40,705 nt of DNA from a virus: the IMG/VR virus record IMGVR_UViG_3300031616_000015, positions 1 through 40,705 of that record, one strand, 5' to 3'. A model generated the notes under the pieces. The model ran no database searches. It was not told the origin of the DNA and worked only from the letters and a program-made list of their open reading frames with translations. Positions 2,546 through 40,705 of this stretch are shown here, one piece after another. Position 1 is the stretch's first letter, and the number at the start of each line of letters is the position of its first letter. Made by a program: the position numbers and the translations under genes.

Positions 2546-3361
2546 ATGACAAAGAAATTCACTCCGAACGTGACGGTCACGCCGAGCATGGCCCGGCAGT
2601 GGCTTGACCGGAACGCCGAGAACAACCGGCGGCCGAAGAAATCCCGCATCCCGGCCATGGCCCGCGACATGGCCATGGGGCACTGGAATTCCGACACGGG
2701 CGAACTGATCAAGTTCGACGTGAACGGTACCTTGATCGACGGACAGAACAGACTTCACGCGGTCATCCTGGCGAACGTGCCGATCCAATTCGACATCATG
2801 GAAGGTCTGCCGACGTCCGTCATGCCCGTCCTCGACACGGGCGCGCCCCGTTCGGCGGGCGACGTCATGACCGTCGCGGGTGCCACCGACCGGATGCGAA
2901 GCGCGGCCATCGTGCGGTGGTCGATCATGTGGGACGCGAAGATCTACACGGGTGCGGGTAGCGCTCTGCGGCCGACTCACAGCGAGATCATCGACCGCTA
3001 TCGGGCAGACTCCGGCGCGTACAACGCGGCGGCCACTCGCGCCACAGACTGCCAGAACAGGGGCCTAGGTGTCGGTGCCCCGGCGGGCGTCGCGTTCTAC
3101 CTGTTCTATCGGCTGAGCCAGGAAGACGCACACGCGTTCTTCGATCAGTACGTGTCCGGCGCGAACCTCCCCGGCCTATCGCCCGTGCTGGCCTTGCGCA
3201 ACAAGATGACACGCCGTCGCCAGGATCGTCTCACCCGTCCGGAACAACTCGGGTACTTCATTCGGGCGTGGAACGGCTGGCGACTCAGCAAGCCGATGGC
3301 GCATCTCTTGCTCGTCAACGACAGCAAGCTGACGGACGACAACTTCCCGCAACCGAAGTAG
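2546..3361 (+). CDS. ParB-like nuclease-domain (ParB/Srx N-terminal type) protein, 271 aa
   Basis: In frame with track ORF 2420..3361. ATG 2546 is preceded by gaggggaaaaggaag (strong SD). The DGQNRL motif and the N-terminal KKSRIP/HW region are typical of ParB-like nuclease domains. Confidence 0.65.
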   Translation: MTKKFTPNVTVTPSMARQWLDRNAENNRRPKKSRIPAMARDMAMGHWNSDTGELIKFDVNGTLIDGQNRLHAVILANVPIQFDIMEGLPTSVMPVLDTGAPRSAGDVMTVAGATDRMRSAAIVRWSIMWDAKIYTGAGSALRPTHSEIIDRYRADSGAYNAAATRATDCQNRGLGVGAPAGVAFYLFYRLSQEDAHAFFDQYVSGANLPGLSPVLALRNKMTRRRQDRLTRPEQLGYFIRAWNGWRLSKPMAHLLLVNDSKLTDDNFPQPK

Positions 3362-3712: not shown

Positions 3713-4059
3713 AGTATCAGGCGCACCTGAAGACCGGGGCAACCGTCGACGTGGAACTTGATGGCGAGATTGGGAGCACGTTCACCAACACAGTCAGAGA
3801 CTCCCTTTCTGTCGGCTGGCTGGTCGACGAGAACGGGGCGATGCTGAACATGGCGTACGTCGCGGCGCTCGTTCCCGTTCTCGATGACGCGGCCAAGACC
3901 CCGTTCGTCCCTGACATCATCATGGACGATGACGGCGACAAGTGGACTCTCTACAGGGACGGTCTGTATCACTACAGCGACGGGACGACAGATCACGTCG
4001 TTAGGCCGAGAACGCGTGCCGAAGTCGAAAGCTCATACGGAATCAGAGAGGAATGGTAG
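3709..4059 (+). CDS. Hypothetical protein (116 aa)
   Basis: Track ORF with an ATGA overlap to the previous gene and protein-like composition. Confidence 0.6.
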   Translation: MKYQAHLKTGATVDVELDGEIGSTFTNTVRDSLSVGWLVDENGAMLNMAYVAALVPVLDDAAKTPFVPDIIMDDDGDKWTLYRDGLYHYSDGTTDHVVRPRTRAEVESSYGIREEW

Positions 4060-4460
4060 TCGTGAATCTGTCGGAAGCGATCGAGCACGCACGTGCAGAC
4101 GTGGCGGAAGTCGGGGAGGGTTTCGTCTACAATCCGGGCGGCGAGAACCGCTGCTTCTACGTCAGCCAAGAGGATCCGCGCTTCCCGTCTGGCATACTGG
4201 AGTCGGCTGAACGGGAAGTGGCATCGGGCAGCAAGACGCACGGATGTCAGGTGGGTCGCATCCTCATGCGCGCGGGATTGATGACGGACGAGATTGCATC
4301 GTGCCAGAATTCCGCGATTGGAGTTGCGCAAATCATGCTCGGACAAGACAACGACGTCGCGCACTTCCTGAGTGACATTCAGGAAGCGCAGGACGGCGGC
4401 GACTCGGCGGGCGATGCACTCGCGAAAAGTCTGCGCTCTGTCCGCCATACTGGTCGGTAA
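4053..4460 (+). CDS. Hypothetical protein (135 aa)
   Basis: Track ORF. Its start overlaps the stop of 3709..4059. GTG 4062 is an alternative start. Confidence 0.55.
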   Translation: MVVVNLSEAIEHARADVAEVGEGFVYNPGGENRCFYVSQEDPRFPSGILESAEREVASGSKTHGCQVGRILMRAGLMTDEIASCQNSAIGVAQIMLGQDNDVAHFLSDIQEAQDGGDSAGDALAKSLRSVRHTGR

Positions 4461-4475
4461 CCCCGTAAACTAAGA

Positions 4476-4829
4476 GTGAGCCGCCCGGCGCGTGTAGTCA
4501 CCCACTACGAAGACGCATACGCCGGGCGGACATCCATTTTATCTGACGGGAAGTGGGACGTGACAAGACGCCACGGAACGGATTGGATCAAGACGTCCTA
4601 CCCGCAGGGCAGATGTCAAGACTGTGACAAATTGTATTACTCGTCGCGAGGCAACGCGAAGCAGAACCTCAAGCGCCTACGCCATCACGGCAAACAGCAC
4701 GTGTACGAATGCCCGACGCACGAAGGATGGTGGCACGTCGGCCACCTACCCGAAGCAGTCGTGCGCGGCGAGCACGGACGTGAAGAGCTAGTGCATGGTC
4801 GCAAGCGACAGACGGGCGAGGAACACTGA
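4476..4829 (+). CDS. Hypothetical Cys/His-rich protein (117 aa; CQDCDK...YECPTHEGWWHVGH)
   Basis: Track ORF with a GTG start. It is the last gene of the + block before the convergent hairpin. Confidence 0.5.
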   Translation: MSRPARVVTHYEDAYAGRTSILSDGKWDVTRRHGTDWIKTSYPQGRCQDCDKLYYSSRGNAKQNLKRLRHHGKQHVYECPTHEGWWHVGHLPEAVVRGEHGREELVHGRKRQTGEEH

Positions 4830-24649: not shown

Positions 24650-24678
24650 ACACTACGGCATCGAGCCTAGCGTGTCAA
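24650..24678 (-). promoter_or_regulatory. Promoter TTGACA-N17-TAGTGT followed by AGTTGAC-ATG (leaderless)
   Basis: The - strand reads cCTAGTTGACAcgctaggctcgatgccgTAGTGTagttgacATG. The TAG of the upstream box (24679-24681) is the terminase stop codon. Confidence 0.6.
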
Positions 24679-29994: not shown

Positions 29995-30023
29995 ACCCTA
30001 GTCGCTCAGGTCTGGCATGTCAA
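29995..30023 (-). promoter_or_regulatory. Promoter TTGACA-N17-TAGGGT followed by AGTTGAC-ATG (leaderless)
   Basis: The - strand reads tCTAGTTGACAtgccagacctgagcgacTAGGGTagttgacATG. The TAG at 30024-30026 is the stop codon of the upstream gene. Confidence 0.6.
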
Positions 30024-31195: not shown

Positions 31196-33445
31196 TCACT
31201 CTTTTTTGGACATCTCGGACTCATGTTCGGCGATGACCAGAGGATCGGACGAAAAGCGGGCACCCCCGACATTGGTGATCAGTTCACGCTTAAACGCCCG
31301 ATCCCATCCCGTATGCCACGTTTGCTTCAACAGCCGCTCAGTCACCCCGCCGTAGAAGCGCTCGATTACCACAGTCCGCGCTTCCGCCTTCGTGAGTCCG
31401 CGACTCTCTCCGTGATCGGACAAAACGCGCACAATCAGATCAGTGACGGAGTCCGAATGCCTCTGCCAGTCCTCGCCACTTCTCCCAGCCGCCGCATCGC
31501 CTTCGGCCACCTTCCACGCATCCGGCTCAAGCACGAGGGACGTCACGTCCTCGCCGTCCTCATCCTGGCCGACCACCACGCGTGTGAAGACGAGCGTCAT
31601 GGGTGCGCGCTCGTCGATGTCCTTCTGTTTCTCCACGAGCAGTTGACCCCGCAGCGTGCCACCCGGAGCCGTCTCGTCCTTGACGACCTTGAGCTCCGTG
31701 TCCTGCGCTCCGTCGATGGCGGAACTACCCCTGGCATCGCCGCCCTTGCGCCCGGTGTGATGCACGGTGAGCACACACGCGCCCGTGGCCTGCCTCAACG
31801 CCTCCACAGCGGCGATGTAGTACCCCATGTCGGTGGCGTTGTTCTCCTCGAGGCCCACCGTCACCCGAGCTTGGGTGTCCATCACGATGAGGCACGGCAG
31901 GGATTGCCCGTCTGGCCCGTTCAGCAGCCTCCTGGCCGCCTCAACGAGCACTGCCCACTTCTTCCCGTCCGCGCTCTGTACGGGCCGTGGGAGCACGTAC
32001 ACGCCGTCCGGCAGGCCACCGTGCGCCTTCTCGTACGCCCGTACCCGCTTGCCCATGCCGCCCGCCCCCTCTGCCGCCACGATGAGCACGCGGGCCTGCG
32101 TAGTCTTCAACCCCTGCCACGGCTTGCCCGCCGCTACGTGCATGGCCATGTCCAGCGCCACGAAACTCTTGCGGGATCCGGGCGCGCCGATCAACCACGC
32201 CGCACTGTCGAGGTTCAGCAGCTCTTTGATCAGCGGTTGCGGCGGTGGGCGCTTGGCCACCTGATCGAGCGAGAGCATTTCGGCCAGTAGGGCGTCGACT
32301 TCATCCCCCGTAGGCACCGAAGACACGCCCGGAATGTCCTGCGTACCGCCCTTGACCTGCGGTGCGTACTCAGTGCGTACCTCTGCGATCCACGGGTCCA
32401 GCGAGGCTCTGCGTCCGTCCAGCACCGCCCTGAACTTCTCCACGGTCCACCTCGAGGCCGGGTGCGACTCGTCGTAAGCGGTCATCGCCAGTTGACGACG
32501 CAACAAGGCCATGGCCTCGTCGACATCCCAGAAGGCGGGCACGAAGTGGGCCAGCGTGACGGCCGCGTTGTTGCACCGATCCTCGATCATCCCGAGCGGC
32601 GCGGCTGCCAGGTCCATCAACGGTCCGCGTACGTGTGCCTGTGCCTGCACGAACGTGAAGCCGCGCGTCTCGACCGCCACCCCCGCCGCCGCCATTCCGG
32701 CCATCGAAGGTGAGGCGAACGGATCATCGGCATCCACGCCACCGCCCTTGACCCTCCTGGCCGCATCATTGCCCGCACCCGCGCGTGCCACCCTTACCAG
32801 CGCCACGATGTGCTCGCCGCTGTCGTCTGAGGATGTGCCGTCCTCTCGCCTGAACTCGGCCAGGAAGCCCGTATCCGGCTCACGCACCCACCGGTAGGGG
32901 TGCAGCTCCCCCATCGTCTCGGGGGCCTTGCTGGGACGCACCGTGGGCGAGATGAACGCGAAGCCGCGTCCCTGCCCGTCCGCCCCGCCCCCTTGCAGGT
33001 CCATGCCCGACAGGAATCCAGCGGATCGATGCTCACCCGTGGGGCTGATCAGTTCGTGCGTCCCGCCCGATGGCGTGCTCTGCGTCCCGAACGATCGGGG
33101 CATCCACCCCCGGTTGTCCAGATCTTCGCGCGAAATGTCCCCGCCGTGGCGGGGGTCGAAGTCCAGCATGTCCGCCCCGCCGGACTCGCGTACCCCGCCG
33201 ACCATCGCGAGGGCGTAGCCCGGTCGCCACCGTTCCAGCCAGGCCGTACGTGACGGTACGGTGCGCTCCCACTGTTTGGGGAGGTAGTACTCCCCCGGTT
33301 GCCACGGATTCGGTGCCGCGCAGAACACCGGTATGCCCGCGTCGATGAGTTCCCCGGCTATCTCCAGCGCCCGCGCCGTCTCCTCGTCCGTCAACGGATT
33401 GATCACAACGGAATTGATCACAACGTCTTGTACTGATTCGCCCAC
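31196..33445 (-). CDS. Bifunctional primase-polymerase (prim-pol) fused to a RecA/RepA-type replicative ATPase (749 aa)
   Basis: The N-terminal segment AGIPVFCAAP...ALAMVGG...DMLDFDPRHGG resembles bifunctional prim-pol domains. The central Walker A (LIGAPGSRKS) and LIVAAEG / VLTVHHTGRKG blocks resemble AAA_25/RepA-like ATPases. Confidence 0.85.
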   Translation of the reverse strand: MGESVQDVVINSVVINPLTDEETARALEIAGELIDAGIPVFCAAPNPWQPGEYYLPKQWERTVPSRTAWLERWRPGYALAMVGGVRESGGADMLDFDPRHGGDISREDLDNRGWMPRSFGTQSTPSGGTHELISPTGEHRSAGFLSGMDLQGGGADGQGRGFAFISPTVRPSKAPETMGELHPYRWVREPDTGFLAEFRREDGTSSDDSGEHIVALVRVARAGAGNDAARRVKGGGVDADDPFASPSMAGMAAAGVAVETRGFTFVQAQAHVRGPLMDLAAAPLGMIEDRCNNAAVTLAHFVPAFWDVDEAMALLRRQLAMTAYDESHPASRWTVEKFRAVLDGRRASLDPWIAEVRTEYAPQVKGGTQDIPGVSSVPTGDEVDALLAEMLSLDQVAKRPPPQPLIKELLNLDSAAWLIGAPGSRKSFVALDMAMHVAAGKPWQGLKTTQARVLIVAAEGAGGMGKRVRAYEKAHGGLPDGVYVLPRPVQSADGKKWAVLVEAARRLLNGPDGQSLPCLIVMDTQARVTVGLEENNATDMGYYIAAVEALRQATGACVLTVHHTGRKGGDARGSSAIDGAQDTELKVVKDETAPGGTLRGQLLVEKQKDIDERAPMTLVFTRVVVGQDEDGEDVTSLVLEPDAWKVAEGDAAAGRSGEDWQRHSDSVTDLIVRVLSDHGESRGLTKAEARTVVIERFYGGVTERLLKQTWHTGWDRAFKRELITNVGGARFSSDPLVIAEHESEMSKKE

Positions 33446-34312: not shown

Positions 34313-34341
34313 TTGACAGGCAACCCCCCACCGACTACGGT
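34313..34341 (+). promoter_or_regulatory. Promoter TTGACA-N17-TACGGT followed by AGTTGAC-ATG (leaderless)
   Basis: The sequence reads aCTAGTTGACAggcaaccccccaccgacTACGGTagttgacATG, with the ATG at 34349. Confidence 0.6.
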
Positions 34342-35685: not shown

Positions 35686-37554
35686 ATGGAGATTACGTTG
35701 GACCCGATGGCCATCCTGCGCCCGTATCAACGGGACGCGATCGATCACCTGTGGAAGTCGTGGGACGCGGGCATGACGCGCGTCCCGATGGTGCTCGCCA
35801 CGGGCCTCGGTAAAACGAAGATCTTCACGCGTGTCGTGCACAAGTGGCTCACCGAGAACGGAAGCAAGCGTGTGCTCGTCATCGCGCACACGGATGAGCT
35901 GATCTCGCAGGCAGCCGCAGAAATGCGTGCCGCCAACTCCGGGATCGCGGTCGGCATCGTCAAGGCTGGACTGAACGAGACGCACTGCCGGATCATCATC
36001 TCGTCTCGTCAGACTCTCGCTTCCGAAAAGCGTCGTGCACAGTTGAAGCGTGTCGGTCTGATCATCATCGATGAGGCGCATCATGCCGTTCGCACGAACA
36101 CGTACGGCAAGATCCTCGAGCACTTCGGCGCGTTCCCCTCGCCGTGCTCCTCATGCTCTGAGGGATTCAGCGGCGATCAGGCGGTACCGGGAGGGCAGTG
36201 CTGGGATTGTCAGGGGACCGGGCTCTACAACGGCGGAGAGACTGCCGTCAAGGTTCTCGGATTGACCGCGACTCTTTCGCGTGGCGACAAGGCGAAGCTC
36301 TCCACGGTGTGGGAGGACAAGCCCGTCCCGACCTTCCGCAAGGACATCCTGTTTGGAATCCGCAACGGCTTCCTGCTCGATGTGCGTGGCGAGCGTGTCA
36401 TCGTTCCCGACCTGAACATGAAGAACGTCAAAACGCAGGGTGGTGATTTTCAGGATGCGAGCATCGCGGAAGAGTTGGAACGCACTTTCGCACCGCAGAT
36501 TGTTGCGGAAAAGTACGCGACCGTGGCAAGGAAATCAGGAAGCAATGAGTTACGTCAGGGGATTGCGTTCTGGCCGTTGGTGGATACTGCCTACCATGGC
36601 GCGCAAGCTTTCAATGATGCGGGCATCTCGTCTGCGGTCATCCACGGTGGTCTACCGAAAGAAGAGCGCAAGCTCATCTTGAAGCGGTTTCAGGCTGGCG
36701 AGATAACCGTTGTCCACAATTGCATGGTGCTGACGGAAGGCTTCGACGCGCCGTGGGCAGACGTGGTGGTGATCGGTCGCCCGACACGCAACGGTGGCCT
36801 GTATCAGCAAATGGTCGGGCGCGTGCTGCGCCCTGATCTGACCGTTGAGGCGAGCCTGCGCGAGAAGGCACTCATCCTCGATGTCACGGGTGCAGGCGCG
36901 GACAACGATCTACGCTGCCTGATCGACCTCGCGCCGGAGCGTCCGCTGAGGAAGCATGACGACGACGATGAGGACTTCTCGCTACTCGATCTCGAGCTAG
37001 AGCTAGAAGAGTCCATCGCCAGCGGCGCGGCACCGTGGCTCGTGGAGGAGATCTACGAAGGGCCTGCTGACACCAAGGCGTTCGATCCTCTTCACCGAAC
37101 TTTGGCGTGGAATCAGACTCCGGACGGCACGTACTTCATGAGCGCCGGGGGCAGCCATTACATCTTCCTCGGTGAGTCCGCGTACGGCGATCCTGGCACG
37201 TACGACGTGGTGTGGTGCACGAAGGTGGATTGGAACACCCCGCCGCAGTCGGCGGGCTCGACCGACTACCGCGCCCTGCCGCTGGAAGAGGCGCTGCTGT
37301 GGGCGGAGGAGGAAGCGATCTCGCGTGGCGGGCACGGCGCGAAGACGCTGTCATCGCGTAAGAGTAAGTGGCGTGACGAGCCTGCCACTGAAGGGCTGAA
37401 GAGCAAGGCTCGCGCGAACGGCATCCGCAACAACAAGGCGACCGGTCGTGATCTGGACACGATGACAAAGGGTGAGCTGGGCGAATTGATCGACGCGAAG
37501 ATTGCAGCCAAGAGTATCGATCCGCTCGTACGCAGACTGAAGGGAACGCGGTAA
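35686..37554 (+). CDS. Superfamily 2 DEAD/DEAH-box DNA helicase (622 aa)
   Basis: Motif I is LATGLGKT, motif II is IIIDEAHH, motif III is LGLTATLSRGD and motif VI is QQMVGRVLR. Confidence 0.85.
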   Translation: MEITLDPMAILRPYQRDAIDHLWKSWDAGMTRVPMVLATGLGKTKIFTRVVHKWLTENGSKRVLVIAHTDELISQAAAEMRAANSGIAVGIVKAGLNETHCRIIISSRQTLASEKRRAQLKRVGLIIIDEAHHAVRTNTYGKILEHFGAFPSPCSSCSEGFSGDQAVPGGQCWDCQGTGLYNGGETAVKVLGLTATLSRGDKAKLSTVWEDKPVPTFRKDILFGIRNGFLLDVRGERVIVPDLNMKNVKTQGGDFQDASIAEELERTFAPQIVAEKYATVARKSGSNELRQGIAFWPLVDTAYHGAQAFNDAGISSAVIHGGLPKEERKLILKRFQAGEITVVHNCMVLTEGFDAPWADVVVIGRPTRNGGLYQQMVGRVLRPDLTVEASLREKALILDVTGAGADNDLRCLIDLAPERPLRKHDDDDEDFSLLDLELELEESIASGAAPWLVEEIYEGPADTKAFDPLHRTLAWNQTPDGTYFMSAGGSHYIFLGESAYGDPGTYDVVWCTKVDWNTPPQSAGSTDYRALPLEEALLWAEEEAISRGGHGAKTLSSRKSKWRDEPATEGLKSKARANGIRNNKATGRDLDTMTKGELGELIDAKIAAKSIDPLVRRLKGTR

Positions 37555-37721
37555 TGGAGTGGCCTCACGCAGCAAGATTTTTGAAAGATGGTGTCTGGCA
37601 ATTGGCGCGCGGGTGTCAGGGGTTTCTCACTGACAAGCATCCGGACGCGCCACGAGGCGTGTCGTTCTGCACATCGTGCAAGCGCACCGTGGTTAGGGGA
37701 ATGGGGAAGTGGTGGGAGTAG
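37554..37721 (+). CDS. Possible small protein (55 aa, MEWPHAARFLKDGVWQLARGCQGF...FCTSCKR...). It is below the ORF-track cutoff.
   Basis: Hand translation. Its ATG overlaps the helicase TAA stop (TAATG). Codon bias is only moderate. Confidence 0.35.
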   Translation: MEWPHAARFLKDGVWQLARGCQGFLTDKHPDAPRGVSFCTSCKRTVVRGMGKWWE

Positions 37722-38713
37722 ATCAGGCCGAAGACCCGTTCGCATCGGCCAGTGACATCAAGCCCGCGCCGAAGGAATTCGGGAAGGTGTACAACGGGCG
37801 GTACCACATGCCGTTGCTGTCCGGCGAGTGCGGCCCGAAGAGCGTCAAGGATGCCGACTACGTATCGGGCGGCATACAGCGCATGACGAACCTCGTCGGC
37901 GCGGCAGAGGACACGCGTGCGCTGAACGTGTGGGAACAGGCGATGGCGCTGGTTGGGCTCGCGCTGTCACCTGAGCTGTACGAAGAGCTGACACTGATGG
38001 TGCATCAGGCACGCAGTGACGGCGTCAACTTCGAACTACTGCGCGAGTATCCGAGGCTGCGGGAAGCGCTCGCTGGCACGCCTCAGGACTCGGGTGAGAG
38101 CATCGTCGGACGGGCGAAGCACGCGGCCAAGGCGAACGCCGCCGCGCAGCGTGGCACGAACAGGCACACAGCGTGGGAACATCGCGGCGAGACGGGCGAG
38201 TTGATCGGCACGCCCGCCATGCAGGAGCACGTCGTGGATGTCGAGCGCGTGTTGGCGAAGGCAGGCCTTGAACGCGTCCCCGGCCTCAGTGAGCGCATCG
38301 TGCGCAACACGGAGATAGGTGCCGTTGGCAAGTTCGATGACATCCTTCGGGAGATCTCCTCTGGCCGCTTCCTGATGGCGGACTTGAAGACAAAGGCTCG
38401 CGAGTTCTTCACGTTCGTCACGGTGGATGCTCAGCTAGCCGGGTACGCGTATTCGGATTGGATGCTGGCCACACGCCCTGCGCGAGACGGCGGGAACGTC
38501 GCGAGCTACGTCCCAGGTCCGCGCTATCACGTGGACCTGACGGAAGGTGTCATCCTGCACGCGCCGTCCGACGGCTCTCCGGCGCACCTCGACCGGGCAG
38601 ACCTCGTGCAGGGGTGGAGGGTGGCGCAGTTGGCGAGGCAGATCGTTGACGTCCGAGCGAACGGCAAGAGCGCGGCGCGCCACGTGGCGAGCATATGGGG
38701 AGTGCAGTCATGA
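37709..38713 (+). CDS. PD-(D/E)xK-type exonuclease (Cas4/RecB-like, 334 aa)
   Basis: The GKFDDIL ... FLMADLKTK arrangement fits a D...(D/E)xK nuclease core. The gene lies next to the helicase gene. Confidence 0.6.
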   Translation: MVGVDQAEDPFASASDIKPAPKEFGKVYNGRYHMPLLSGECGPKSVKDADYVSGGIQRMTNLVGAAEDTRALNVWEQAMALVGLALSPELYEELTLMVHQARSDGVNFELLREYPRLREALAGTPQDSGESIVGRAKHAAKANAAAQRGTNRHTAWEHRGETGELIGTPAMQEHVVDVERVLAKAGLERVPGLSERIVRNTEIGAVGKFDDILREISSGRFLMADLKTKAREFFTFVTVDAQLAGYAYSDWMLATRPARDGGNVASYVPGPRYHVDLTEGVILHAPSDGSPAHLDRADLVQGWRVAQLARQIVDVRANGKSAARHVASIWGVQS

Positions 38714-39106: not shown

Positions 39107-39387
39107 CCATGGTCGGACATCCCGACGTCGTGCACTGCACGCGTACCTACTCACCGGTCGTGACTCACTACTACGGGCGTCTGAGCAACGGGCACTTCTT
39201 CTACTTCACGTACCGGTTCGGCCGCGTCACGCTGGCCGTGGGTTCCAGCAAGGTCGCTACGGACGGTCGGCATGATGTGGTGATGGCGCACGGCGCGGCC
39301 AGACAGGGCAACTTCGCTAGCGATCAAGTCCGTGACCAGGTGTTCTCTCACCTCTACAATCTCCTTCAAGAAACTTCGCTCAACTAG
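39103..39387 (+). CDS. Hypothetical protein (94 aa)
   Basis: In frame with track ORF 39070..39387, with a GTG 39103 coupled start. Its TAG stop (39385-39387) is part of the next CTAGTTGAC box. Confidence 0.5.
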   Translation: MTMVGHPDVVHCTRTYSPVVTHYYGRLSNGHFFYFTYRFGRVTLAVGSSKVATDGRHDVVMAHGAARQGNFASDQVRDQVFSHLYNLLQETSLN

Positions 39388-39416
39388 TTGACGCGGTGGC
39401 CAGCAGCGACTAGTGT
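39388..39416 (+). promoter_or_regulatory. Promoter TTGACG-N17-TAGTGT in front of a non-coding RNA locus
   Basis: The sequence reads aaCTAGTTGACGcggtggccagcagcgacTAGTGTtcttctcACGGGGG. No ATG follows. The predicted start is near 39424. Confidence 0.55.
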
Positions 39417-39423
39417 TCTTCTC

Positions 39424-39654
39424 ACGGGGGAGGTCAAGCCCTCAGGGCAAGGAACGGCACGGAAGTTCTCGGGACTCCTGAGGAGAAGGCGATTGAGTCG
39501 CGCCTCAGGCTCGCACCCGAGAACGTGCACCCACCACGGGAGTTCGTCAGGAATACCGTAGGGTCAGAGTATCTGGCGATGACGACACGGAAAGACGTGT
39601 GGCCCCCGCGCTTCGGCGCATGGCGCAATGCAGGTTCGAATCCTGCGAGGGGCG
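39424..39654 (+). ncRNA. Structured RNA of unknown class ending in a tRNA-like T-arm/acceptor minihelix (39602-39654). It is not a canonical tRNA.
   Basis: The T-arm GCAGG-TTCGAAT-CCTGC lies at 39630-39646. The 3' strand GAGGGGC (39647-39653) pairs with GCCCC (39602-39606). There is a GCGC-TTCG-GCGC hairpin at 39608-39619. Upstream long-range pairings are CCTCAGG 39440 / CCTGAGG 39477 and GTTCTCGGG 39465 / CCCGAGAAC 39516. The antisense ORF contains the AGFEPA signature typical of tRNA antisense. Confidence 0.4.
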
Positions 39655-39829
39655 CGAAGGTGTGACGCACCTAGTTTTGGCAGTAGCCGTTTACGACGAG
39701 TGTCACATCTTCACGGGAGCAAGGAATCGGCAGGCCCAATTTCATATCGGCAGTGTGCGGAACTATCCCGCAGAGACGCTCGTCCCCTGATGCGACACTA
39801 ACGCGGTTAGACGCAGAAAGTGACGCTAT

Positions 39830-40069
39830 ATGGATCGGCTACGTACTGACGGGACCCATAGCACGGATGTGATACGACTTGCGCGAACGTTTAACTCGTT
39901 CGGCTCCCACGTGGCAGCAGACAAAGAGCCGATGATCCTCCGCTTGATTCGAGCGGCCAGGAAGCAGAAGGCGGAGCAGACACGCAAGCTTCCGCCCGTC
40001 AAGAACGCGAAGGAGGCTCGCATCGTCAAGGGAGCGAAGCGCACGCATGGTGGAGGTGCCGACAACTAG
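39830..40069 (+). CDS. Hypothetical basic protein (79 aa) between the two RNA genes
   Basis: Track ORF with moderately GC-rich third positions and no clear SD. Confidence 0.45.
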   Translation: MDRLRTDGTHSTDVIRLARTFNSFGSHVAADKEPMILRLIRAARKQKAEQTRKLPPVKNAKEARIVKGAKRTHGGGADN

Positions 40070-40123
40070 CCGACTGCGCTAGCATCCCTCGCAGACAGTC
40101 AACTGCGCTAGCATTCGCAACAC

Positions 40124-40196
40124 GCCCCATATAGCTTAACGGTAGAGCGCTCCGCCCGATACGCGGGAAGACAAGGGTTCGAATCCCTTAGGGGCA
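40124..40196 (+). tRNA. tRNA-like gene, 73 nt, with tentative anticodon GAU (Ile) and irregular features
   Basis: T-arm is AAGGG-TTCGAAT-CCCTT. D-arm is GCTT-AACGGTA-GAGC. The anticodon stem is TCCGC/GCGGG with loop CCGATAC. The acceptor stem has only 5 G-C pairs plus mismatches, position 33 is C rather than U, and no CCA is encoded. Confidence 0.55.
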
Positions 40197-40303
40197 CGGC
40201 GCAAGTACCCGAGGTCACGCTCTCGCACTGTGACAGCGAGTCAAGGGGAACGCACCGCCGAGGACGGAAGGCATAGGCCGTGACAGTCCGGAGAGACGGA
40301 CGC

Positions 40304-40340
40304 GAGGGGACGAGCCTGGCCCGTCCTTGCTCGTCCCCTC
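40304..40340 (+). terminator. Hairpin with a 12-bp perfect stem (GAGGGGACGAGC / GCTCGTCCCCTC) and 13-nt loop, downstream of the tRNA
   Basis: Read directly at 40304-40315 and 40329-40340. Confidence 0.55.
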
Positions 40341-40383
40341 ACCTGCACACCCCGCATCATCCCGCACAGAAAGCAGACCTCGC

Positions 40384-40705
40384 ATGACACAAGCAACACA
40401 GCAAGCGGACCCGTGGGCCACGGCCAGTCAGGCAGCAACGGGTGCGGCTGAGGCCGCCAAGCCCGCAGACCCCAACGCCGACCCTTTCGCCAGCCCGGAC
40501 GAAATCGGCGGTAGCTCTGGTCCGCGCGGCCCGAAGTGGGCGGAAATCCTTGACCGGCTGGTCGTTCTAAAGCCCGTCAAGCTTCTGACGGATCAGCCCG
40601 TGCCGGGAGACCCGAACAAGACGCAGAGCATCTACGTCGCCACCCTCACCGTGCTCGGATCCGAATCCGTCACCGTGGTCTCTCCGGCCACCGAGAAGGA
40701 TGGCA
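40384..40705 (+). CDS. N-terminal part of the junction-spanning CDS, which continues as 1..450 (see first feature)
   Basis: The reading from ATG 40384 is stop-free to the window end (hand translated: MTQATQQADPWATASQAATGAAEAAKPADPNADPFASPDEIGG...KLLTDQPVPGDPNK). It is in phase with ORF 22..450. Confidence 0.6.
   Translation, partial: MTQATQQADPWATASQAATGAAEAAKPADPNADPFASPDEIGGSSGPRGPKWAEILDRLVVLKPVKLLTDQPVPGDPNKTQSIYVATLTVLGSESVTVVSPATEKDG
40579..40705. repeat. Exact 127-bp duplicate of bases 1-127 (assembly or terminal overlap of a circular or circularly permuted genome)
   Basis: Compared base by base: aagcttctgacggatcagcccgtgccgggagac...ccgagaaggatggca. Confidence 0.95.

Follow-up and report, generated by a model that had tools for sequence, protein, structure and literature searches.

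A tRNA-like minihelix without an anticodon arm in a modular non-coding leader of an uncultured actinobacterial phage

Organization of the leader and structure of the minihelix

The IMG/VR virus record IMGVR_UViG_3300031616_000015, analyzed over its full 40,705 nucleotides (nt) and hereafter called the window, is a 40.7-kb phage genome or near-genome with a GC content of ~0.61. Downstream of its exonuclease gene, a promoter points into a leader that is assembled from exchangeable RNA modules, namely a hairpin designated M1, a small hairpin, a hairpin with a GAAAGA loop and a tRNA-like minihelix (Table 1). The minihelix combines an acceptor-like stem with a T arm and contains no anticodon arm. 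A preliminary description of this locus had proposed a promoter-driven, non-coding, structured RNA of ~230 nt with such a minihelix as its 3' part. The promoter, the non-coding character and the minihelix were all recovered in the present analysis, and the proposed end of the RNA at 39654 was not.

The promoter consists of a -35 box and a -10 box separated by 17 nt. Because TAGTGT shares only 3/6 positions with TATAAT, the promoter is missed by a generic sigma-70 scan. The window has three matches to the pattern TTGACN-N17-TAGNGT, where 0.02 would be expected, and in 16 related contigs the syntenic site, which follows the exonuclease gene or a small open reading frame (ORF), holds an equally spaced TTGACN-N17-TA(G/A)N(G/C)T box. 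The other two copies in the window are located at 24650–24678 and 29995–30023, both on the minus strand, and similar boxes (TTGACA-N17-TAC(G/T)GT) are present at 34313 and 35649; boxes of this type probably form the phage's set of promoters for the host RNA polymerase. Judged from spacing alone, transcription would start near A39424, from which G39654 is reached after ~231 nt. A 57-codon ORF at 39388–39561 was rejected as a gene, as it starts at the TTG of the -35 box, is interrupted by a ~125-nt insertion in the related locus L047 and is replaced in another, L141.

No terminator was called downstream of the minihelix, and conserved non-coding modules run on to ~40383, immediately before the next gene. 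The first of them, which is common to the related loci L047, L141 and L142, contains a weak hairpin plus UAGUUUUGG at 39660–39680 and the conserved block GGGAGCAAGGAAU...GGCAGUGUGCGG...CGUCCCCUGAUGC at 39715–39793. Given this continuation, the transcript probably reads on beyond 39654, and any transcript end at the minihelix would have to arise by processing. A second conserved block (UAUAUGGAUCGGCUA...CGAACGUUUAACUCGUUCGGCUCCC), shared by the same three loci, abuts a tRNA-like element in L142. Neither block has an Rfam match.

Table 1. Coordinates of the leader modules and of neighbouring features in the window
Feature	Positions	Strand	Remarks
Promoter	39388–39416	+	-35 TTGACG, 39388–39393; -10 TAGTGT, 39411–39416
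Variable 5' stretch	39424–39464	+	Local GCCC-UCA-GGGC hairpin, 39438–39448
M1 hairpin	39465–39524	+	Outer helix 39465–39473/39516–39524, GTTCTCGGG/CCCGAGAAC; inner helix 39477–39483/39503–39509, CCTGAGG/CCTCAGG; loop AGAAGGCGAUUGAGUCGCG, 39484–39502
Small hairpin	39536–39559	+	ACGG-GAGUUCGUCAGGAAUA-CCGU; conservation read by direct comparison of the sequences
UGAC and GARAGA-loop hairpin	39580–39600	+	UGACG, then ACACG-GAAAGA-CGUGU (39585–39600)
Minihelix (top-half tRNA mimic)	39602–39654	+	53 nt; trailer CGA follows
Acceptor 5' strand	39602–39608	+	GCCCCCG
Hairpin in D-arm position	39609–39618	+	(G)CGC-UUCG-GCG(C)
Linker	between UUCG hairpin and T arm	+	AUGGCGCAAU
T arm	39630–39646	+	GCAGG-TTCGAAT-CCTGC
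Acceptor 3' strand	39647–39653	+	GAGGGGC; discriminator G73 = G39654
Conserved non-coding continuation	39655–39829	+
Second conserved block	39827–39908
Small basic ORF	39932–40069		MILRLIRAARKQKAEQTRKLPPVKNAKEARIVKGAKRTHGGGADN
Direct repeat ACTGCGCTAGCAT	40073–40085 and 40102–40114		Copies 16 nt apart, between small ORF and tRNA-Ile-like gene
tRNA-Ile(GAU)	40124–40197		38.7 bits
Second GARAGA copy	40281–40302		UGAC-N4-CGGARAGACG; GUGACAGUCCGGAGAGACGGAC
GC-rich hairpin	within 40281–40340		12 bp, GAGGGGACGAGC...GCUCGUCCCCUC; no U tract
Next gene	from 40384
Capsid, Clp-protease, portal and terminase genes	19.6–26 kb	-
Primase-helicase gene	31196–33445	-	Replication block
Helicase gene	35686–37554		Replication block
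Exonuclease gene	37709–38713		Replication block

In the minihelix, the T arm adopts the tRNA pattern with a 5-bp stem and a 7-nt loop (UUCRANY). Five of the seven acceptor pairs form in the window, in agreement with the 5-bp stem described previously, and positions 6:67 (C·A) and 7:66 (G·G) are unpaired. The space between acceptor and T arm contains neither a D arm with a 7–11-nt loop carrying G18 and G19 nor an anticodon arm with a 7-nt loop. A 3–4-bp UUCG hairpin is present instead, and the UGG of the linker is the only possible source of the D-loop GG. The acceptor 5' strand is thereby separated from the T stem by 21 nt, compared with 41 in a class I tRNA. The window contains two copies of the sequence GGTTCGAATCC, where 0.03 would be expected.

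Folding of the single sequence is unimpressive and does not surpass that of shuffled sequences, with z values of -0.10 for a 63-nt piece with the minihelix and -2.0 for 246 nt, so the structural support comes from comparison with relatives. Related loci were gathered from IMG/VR, metagenomes and reference genomes using the exonuclease protein and the exact M1 loop. The order M1–small hairpin–GARAGA hairpin–minihelix is kept in three homologues, L047, L152 and the more diverged L008, and two pattern scans of IMG/VR retrieved no further homologue of the exact module. The imperfect GCCCCCG/GAGGGGC acceptor of the window corresponds to a perfect 7-bp GCCCCCG/CGGGGGC stem in L047 and to GUCCCCG/CGGGGGU with 7/7 pairs in L152, and the T stem changes from GCAGG/CCUGC to GUGGG/CCUAC and ACGGG/CCCGU, respectively. 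The anticodon position is empty in the window and L047 and holds an extra UGCC-GACGUA-GGCA hairpin in L152. All three sequences keep CGC-UUCG-GCG, the linker UGG, the T loop UUCGA(A/U)U and a trailer N73-CG. In the three-sequence alignment, 96.7% of the cells of 20 pairs are paired and 7 pairs are compensatory (3/5 in the T stem), a level reached by 0/500 shuffles; slid-partner controls score far lower than the true pairing, and every unpaired cell belongs to positions 6:67 and 7:66 of the window. The covariance model derived from the three sequences gives scores of 100.8 (window), 109.6 (L047) and 86.4 bits (L152). Drawn from three sequences, this covariation is suggestive, not conclusive. 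The closest relative by exonuclease identity among contigs long enough for inspection, L141 (91%), has the promoter and M1, followed by a different insert in place of the small hairpin, the GARAGA hairpin and the minihelix.

Hairpin modules of the leader and the phage lineage

The GAAAGA hairpin stops 1 nt 5' of the minihelix. Its UGAC-GARAGA pattern has two matches in the window, where 0 would be expected, and is present in 8 distinct related contigs (nine listed loci, of which L012 is the same contig as L008), with a stem that is 100% paired and has compensatory changes in 4/5 pairs. The arrangement of a UGAC-GARAGA hairpin followed after 1–3 nt by a tRNA or tRNA-like element is found in the window, L047, L152 and L008, and also in L007 (3835–3944), where 3 nt separate a GAGAGA hairpin from a genuine tRNA-Phe downstream and the minihelix covariance model, run over the loci gathered here, gives 35.7 bits. 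The L007 match indicates that the combination of a GARAGA hairpin with a tRNA or tRNA-like element immediately 3' of it is a conserved unit. The small hairpin further upstream is kept in L047 and has the stems GCGG/CCGC in L152 and CCGG/CCGG in L008; its outer pair is accordingly A-U in the window and L047, G-C in L152 and C-G in L008.

The second GARAGA copy is directly followed by the GC-rich hairpin, and this pair of elements also precedes the equivalent of the 40384 gene in L141, L142, L149, L151 and L152; it could be a regulated terminator of the antitermination type. The small, very basic ORF between the two GARAGA copies is kept as a gene of 45–52 codons in L141, L144 and L152, and the 79-codon version listed from ATG 39830 is probably too long. 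Its product has no Pfam match. It has an arginine-rich N-terminus, like RNA-binding peptides such as lambda N, and is a candidate partner of the GARAGA hairpins.

The M1 hairpin is composed of an outer and an inner helix and a 19-nt purine-rich loop, which itself contains a GCGA-UUGAG-UCGC mini-hairpin. The identical 19-mer loop with covarying flanks occurs in 17 distinct contigs, and at least 8 different inner-helix sequences are found among the members. In an eight-sequence alignment, the inner helix is 100% paired with 4/7 pairs compensatory, and 0/500 shuffles reach the observed covariation. The window contains each defining feature of M1, that is, the exact loop, a covarying helix of at least 7 bp and a G-C pair next to the loop; in L142 and L152 the same frame encloses a variant loop, AGGAAG-GUUC-UWA-GAAC-A. 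The helices 39477/39503 and 39465/39516 correspond to long-range pairings noted in the preliminary description. Both are real, and they are nested, so they are neither mutually exclusive nor pseudoknotted. The alternative partner proposed at 39440 (CCTCAGG) and the alternative acceptor closure at 39438 (GCCCTC) fall into the variable 5' stretch, which is replaced or expanded in L047, L141 and L144, and the minihelix closes locally; neither proposal is supported.

M1 is found 5' of small secreted-protein genes, in a small RNA with a terminator and in early leaders like that of the window, and in L144, L015 and L128 a tRNA-like element begins 2–9 nt after it. Rfam contains no M1 family. The 19-mer has only four matches in reference bacterial genomes, all chance matches in coding sequence, which argues that M1 is not a host RNA or an element of reference prophages. 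A metagenome scan with a 17-mer of the loop returned 120 rows, most of them chance matches inside genes, and six true members. No paper on the M1 loop was found in the searched literature, including a search with the sequence string. On this comparative evidence, M1 is a separate, widespread and new motif. A further motif, ACAACUGAA, lies 3–9 nt 5' of many tRNA-like 5' ends (L001 7251–7764; leaders of L144, L149 and L152) and, in L011, L013, L015 and L018, upstream of the outer helix of M1. In L152, the motif and the stop codon of the small basic ORF overlap. The motif may serve as a processing or leader signal. Several relatives carry a leader block CAUGGCUCAUAAUUUCGCGGGGUGCGCG.GCCGGUAGGUGGUU.GGCCGGUG that is absent from the window (approximate sites: L001 7635–7690, L002 7375–7420, L004 6595–6650, L149 4125–4180 and L150 5210–5250).

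The nearest match of the portal protein is that of Streptomyces phage Dagobah (37% identity), and the exonuclease shows ~30% identity to proteins of Streptomyces, Gordonia and Corynebacterium phages. More than 200 exonuclease homologues were found at E ≤ 1e-30, many of them on uncultured ~40-kb contigs, which places the phage in a sizeable lineage of uncultured actinophages. Cultured phages gave no nucleotide match to the 39388–39654 region or to M1, and a protein-based scan of reference genomes returned no relatives. In L152, the exonuclease gene and the non-coding island are separated by a 198-codon gene with an RLIG1 (RNA ligase 1) domain (3972–4568; 36.9 bits, cutoff 25), and a ProQ_C-like gene (1–42) lies upstream. 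Both are accessory RNA-handling genes that the window does not carry.

tRNA-like elements of the lineage and their possible roles

ARAGORN called no tRNA or tmRNA (transfer-messenger RNA) at 39388–39654 in its default, -ps, -ps80, -mt and -m modes. A "tRNA-His with a 149-nt intron" returned by -i -ps80 starts inside the -10 box and is an artefact. An Rfam 15 scan of the window at gathering thresholds likewise found no tRNA or tmRNA at this site, and a search of 39200–40400 (1.2 kb) at E ≤ 10 gave nothing meaningful at the minihelix (RF00005 gathering score, 29 bits). A canonical tRNA was rejected because there is no D arm, no anticodon arm and no model match. A tmRNA was rejected because the local closure 39602–39608/39647–39653 is conserved as such and no tag-like peptide frame exists. 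Position 3:70 is C-G in the window, L047 and L152. ARAGORN, Rfam and the sequence all agree with the preliminary description, which had seen no canonical tRNA, no tmRNA, no G3:U70 pair and no tag frame.

The only tRNA called in the window, tRNA-Ile(GAU), lies 470 nt downstream of the minihelix. It has C in place of U at position 33 and two acceptor mismatches (GCCCCAU/UAGGGGC). In its homologue in L142 a 4-nt loop replaces the anticodon loop, and the interior is wholly different in L141, L144 and L002. This tRNA may also be a non-decoding mimic.

An acceptor and T arm without an anticodon arm is also the architecture of the tRNA-like domain of tmRNA, and an anticodon-independent synthetase might thus charge the minihelix for ribosome rescue or amino-acid donation. 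An element in L015 and L128 even has the alanine identity set of G3:U70 and A73. The window has C3-G70 and G73, however, none of its reading frames ends in a typical tag, the large part of the RNA lies 5' of the minihelix instead of being enclosed by it, and the ARAGORN tmRNA modes and Rfam are without a match. We regard charging as very unlikely.

The minihelix is not a one-off, as its earlier description as a single tRNA-like RNA without an anticodon arm had implied, but a member of a lineage-wide set. A script that searched 22 related loci for a T arm, acceptor pairing and an N73-CG trailer returned 39 tRNA-shaped candidates, some of which are misregistered or false. ARAGORN calls just 2 of the 39 as tRNAs with a 3-nt anticodon, and several others are reported as "tRNA-???" with 2- or 4-nt "anticodons". 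Rfam scans of 20 related loci at gathering thresholds and an E-value scan of L001 gave genuine tRNAs and chance matches only. In the candidates, the anticodon arm is deleted, greatly expanded, replaced or capped by a tetraloop, which is GAGA in L144, GCAA in L010, GGAA in L001 and UUCG in the window. For example, L144 3755–3823 forms a full cloverleaf in which GAGA caps the anticodon stem, L001 7702–7764 contains CCC-GGUAU-GGG and GCC-GGAA-GGC hairpins, and L152 5548–5643 has a normal D arm and, by eye, a ~45-nt insert in the anticodon position. L001 harbours four tRNA-like elements nearly back to back with little cargo between them. Selection appears to act only on the half made up of acceptor, T arm and elbow. 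The trailer N73-CG(A/G) is common to genuine tRNAs and mimics, which argues for shared 3' processing.

The element with the alanine identity set, at L015 3890–3957 and on the minus strand of L128 (5159–5236 in strand-oriented numbering), stands right after M1 and has the acceptor GGGCCUG/CAGGUCC and a truncated anticodon loop. ARAGORN reports the L015 copy as "tRNA-??? (gg)" and misses the one in L128. Alanyl-tRNA synthetase could charge this element, which would be unable to decode. L019, a contig that also carries M1, encodes a tRNA with a CUA anticodon on the minus strand (3078–3160; ARAGORN "tRNA-Pyl"; Rfam tRNA, 45.6 bits), a possible amber suppressor.

These comparisons bear on the proposal that the minihelix is a decaying phage tRNA gene, in which deletions removed the D and anticodon arms and left a remnant without a function of its own. 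The two mismatches in the window acceptor, the absence of the module from the close relative L141, an L008 alignment that suggests that deletions created the window form and the degenerate look of the tRNA-Ile(GAU) gene downstream are in line with decay. Against it, pairing in the T stem and acceptor is preserved by compensatory changes in L047 and L152 despite ~40% protein divergence, the T loop is intact and the top-half-only pattern recurs in dozens of elements. Stable UUCG or GNRA tetraloops, which by our own estimate make up <5% of random 4-nt loops, also cap the shortened arms in independent elements. Decay is accordingly an improbable explanation.

The reading that we rank first, while holding it tentatively, is that the minihelix mimics the top half of a tRNA and is processed, within a long early leader, by RNase P and RNase Z of the host. 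These two enzymes and the CCA-adding enzyme recognize a tRNA by its top half. The host would treat the mimic as a pre-tRNA. RNase P would cut 5' of G39602, RNase Z or exonucleases would trim after G39654, and the CCA-adding enzyme would complete the 3' end. Two products would result: a ~180-nt structured RNA, whose 3' end would be guarded by the GAAAGA hairpin, and a small, stable, non-decoding tRNA-like RNA of 53 nt. The transcript that releases them would otherwise continue downstream. A processing handle is favoured by the retention of only the acceptor/T-arm stack, the T-loop consensus UUCGAAU/UUCGAUU and the linker UGG, which could supply an elbow contact. Since there is no terminator and the conserved non-coding sequence continues, discrete products would need processing. 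Together with the shared trailer and the adjacent hairpin, these features make a processing handle the most economical interpretation.

Several observations weigh against this interpretation. The GAAAGA hairpin ends so close to G+1 of the minihelix that hardly any single-stranded leader is left for the RNase P protein. The two acceptor mismatches lie beside the T stem and are not seen in L047 or L152, so the window may hold a weakened copy. The exact module is known from only 3–4 homologues, and it is accessory and dispensable, given that L141 has M1 without it. The back-to-back elements of L001, with their little cargo, suggest that the tRNA-like RNAs are themselves the product and not punctuation.

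The last point leads to a decoy or sponge, in which the mimics are the active product, made in bulk early in infection, and titrate factors that bind the acceptor end or elbow of tRNAs, for example toxins of the MenT/AbiEii nucleotidyltransferase type or host tRNA-processing enzymes. Such mimics would be invisible to the ribosome and to anticodon nucleases. MenT toxins modify tRNA 3' ends, are found in Actinobacteria and are related to AbiE abortive infection (PMC7450476, PMC10435456). A decoy would fit the position of the elements behind a strong early promoter, the tandem arrays of L001, the mosaic content between close relatives (L141 and the window), which resembles that of counter-defence islands, and selection on the top half only. 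The occurrence of acceptor-end-targeting MenT toxins in Actinobacteria and the RLIG1-like gene beside the L152 island, which hints at conflicts over tRNA damage and repair in the lineage, point in the same direction. However, the acceptors vary in sequence instead of copying a single host tRNA, and the conserved hairpin–tRNA junction is left unexplained. A decoy is possible but unlikely in our estimate. Slightly less credence is given to its wider form, in which purpose-built top-half mimics, produced in arrays throughout this lineage of uncultured 40-kb actinobacterial phages, serve as counter-defence together with the M1 and UGAC-GARAGA modules and soak up acceptor-end factors such as MenT/AbiEii or hijack tRNA-processing enzymes. 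The options offered in the preliminary description, a tRNA-derived element in a longer precursor, a decoy or a new phage RNA, include both the processing handle and the decoy.

A role at the DNA level, either as an attachment-site (attP) core that copies the 3' end of a host tRNA or as a transcript that primes replication, is the least probable of the explanations considered. Phage attP sites often carry tRNA 3' halves, and the region lies beside replication genes (helicase and exonuclease). RNA-primed prophage origins occur in mycobacteriophages (PMC7157519). No integrase was found among the 35 ORFs of the window that were scanned with Pfam and/or PHROGs, however, and in L047 the T stem has compensatory changes although its flanks are nearly identical, a kind of change that an attP core would not permit. 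There are several tRNA-like elements per genome, the switch in GC skew and gene orientation is located near 35 kb and not at this locus, and a parABS context is missing.

Relation to known tRNA-like elements

The processing-handle reading has a close architectural counterpart in mascRNA and menRNA, the small tRNA-like RNAs at the 3' ends of MALAT1 and NEAT1 (RF01684). RNase P cleavage at the tRNA-like element forms the 3' end of the upstream MALAT1 RNA, and the small RNA is then completed through RNase Z and CCA addition (PMC8457004). Like the phage element, mascRNA and menRNA have a small tRNA shape with a degenerate anticodon arm, lie in a longer non-coding transcript and directly follow a structured 3'-end element. 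The geometry of M1 followed by a tRNA-like element in L144, L015 and L128 matches the MALAT1–mascRNA arrangement. The two systems differ in that mascRNA and menRNA are eukaryotic and nuclear and share no sequence relationship with the phage element, for which processing is proposed here. In addition, mascRNA keeps a short arm in the anticodon position, whereas the window element has none. The window element gave no RF01684 match at E ≤ 10, and related L001 elements give weak matches of 17–18 bits, far below the gathering score of 42.5. The resemblance would be functional or architectural only.

The tRNA-like domain of tmRNA shares with the minihelix an acceptor and T arm, a reduced D region and the lack of an anticodon arm. 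In tmRNA, both RNA ends form the acceptor around a large domain with pseudoknots and a tag ORF, and G3:U70 confers alanine identity, whereas the large RNA lies wholly 5' of the minihelix, position 3:70 is C-G and there is no tag frame.

The TMER units of murine gammaherpesvirus 68 are non-decoding tRNA-like signals at which RNase P and RNase Z set the ends of neighbouring RNAs. Plant mitochondrial t-elements are reported to be signals of the same kind for these two enzymes (PMC1920247). Both resemble the phage element as proposed here in being non-decoding tRNA-like processing signals, and differ in kingdom and polymerase and in the absence of homology. A further difference is that the phage elements form arrays and adjoin a conserved GARAGA-loop hairpin. 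By analogy, the minihelix would work most like mascRNA, the mitochondrial t-elements or the herpesviral units, to which it is unrelated in sequence.

Stable RNA species 1 and 2 of bacteriophage T4 are encoded in its tRNA cluster, are co-transcribed and co-processed with the tRNAs and are partly tRNA-like; we know of no decoding role for them. They and the window element are both small phage RNAs with a partial likeness to tRNA, with no established homology in sequence or structure and with hosts from different clades, and T4 in addition encodes a full set of genuine tRNAs. In soil metatranscriptomes, polycistrons of irregular tRNAs have been described, some of which are charged but unused in translation; they keep their anticodon loops, have an unusual 8/4 or 9/3 acceptor/T geometry and have been assigned to Acidobacteria and toxin–antitoxin loci (PMC5389517). 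Like them, the phage elements are clusters of non-canonical tRNA shapes from uncultured organisms. In the phage elements, however, the anticodon loop is missing or replaced, and they sit in phage early leaders. YrlA (Y RNA-like) RNAs, some of which are found in actinophages, contain a tRNA-mimicking module with a T arm, a D arm and an acceptor-like stem. Their RNA ends form the Ro-binding stem at the position of the anticodon stem, and the acceptor-like stem is closed. YrlA and the minihelix are both tRNA-mimicking modules in non-coding RNA, and the acceptor ends of the minihelix are open. An E-value-level Rfam scan of the region revealed no YrlA or other Y-RNA family.

No description of anticodon-less arrays, M1 or the GARAGA element in phages was found in the searched literature. 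As judged by covariation among relatives, which is clear for both, M1 and GARAGA are two undescribed conserved RNA motifs. The window copy of the minihelix is a somewhat degraded, accessory member of its set with a putative function. Both motifs can be made as short synthetic transcripts, and actinobacterial RNase P, RNase Z, CCA-adding enzyme and acceptor-end toxins can be assayed on the 53-nt minihelix as a simple substrate. Annotators should not take low-scoring tRNAs or ARAGORN "tRNA-???" calls in such phages for decoders. If the mimics are decoys, they would constitute a new class of RNA-based anti-defence factor. If the minihelix is a processing handle, actinobacterial phages would use tRNA-shaped punctuation, known from mitochondria, herpesviruses and MALAT1 and not established for phages, to carve small RNAs from their early leaders.

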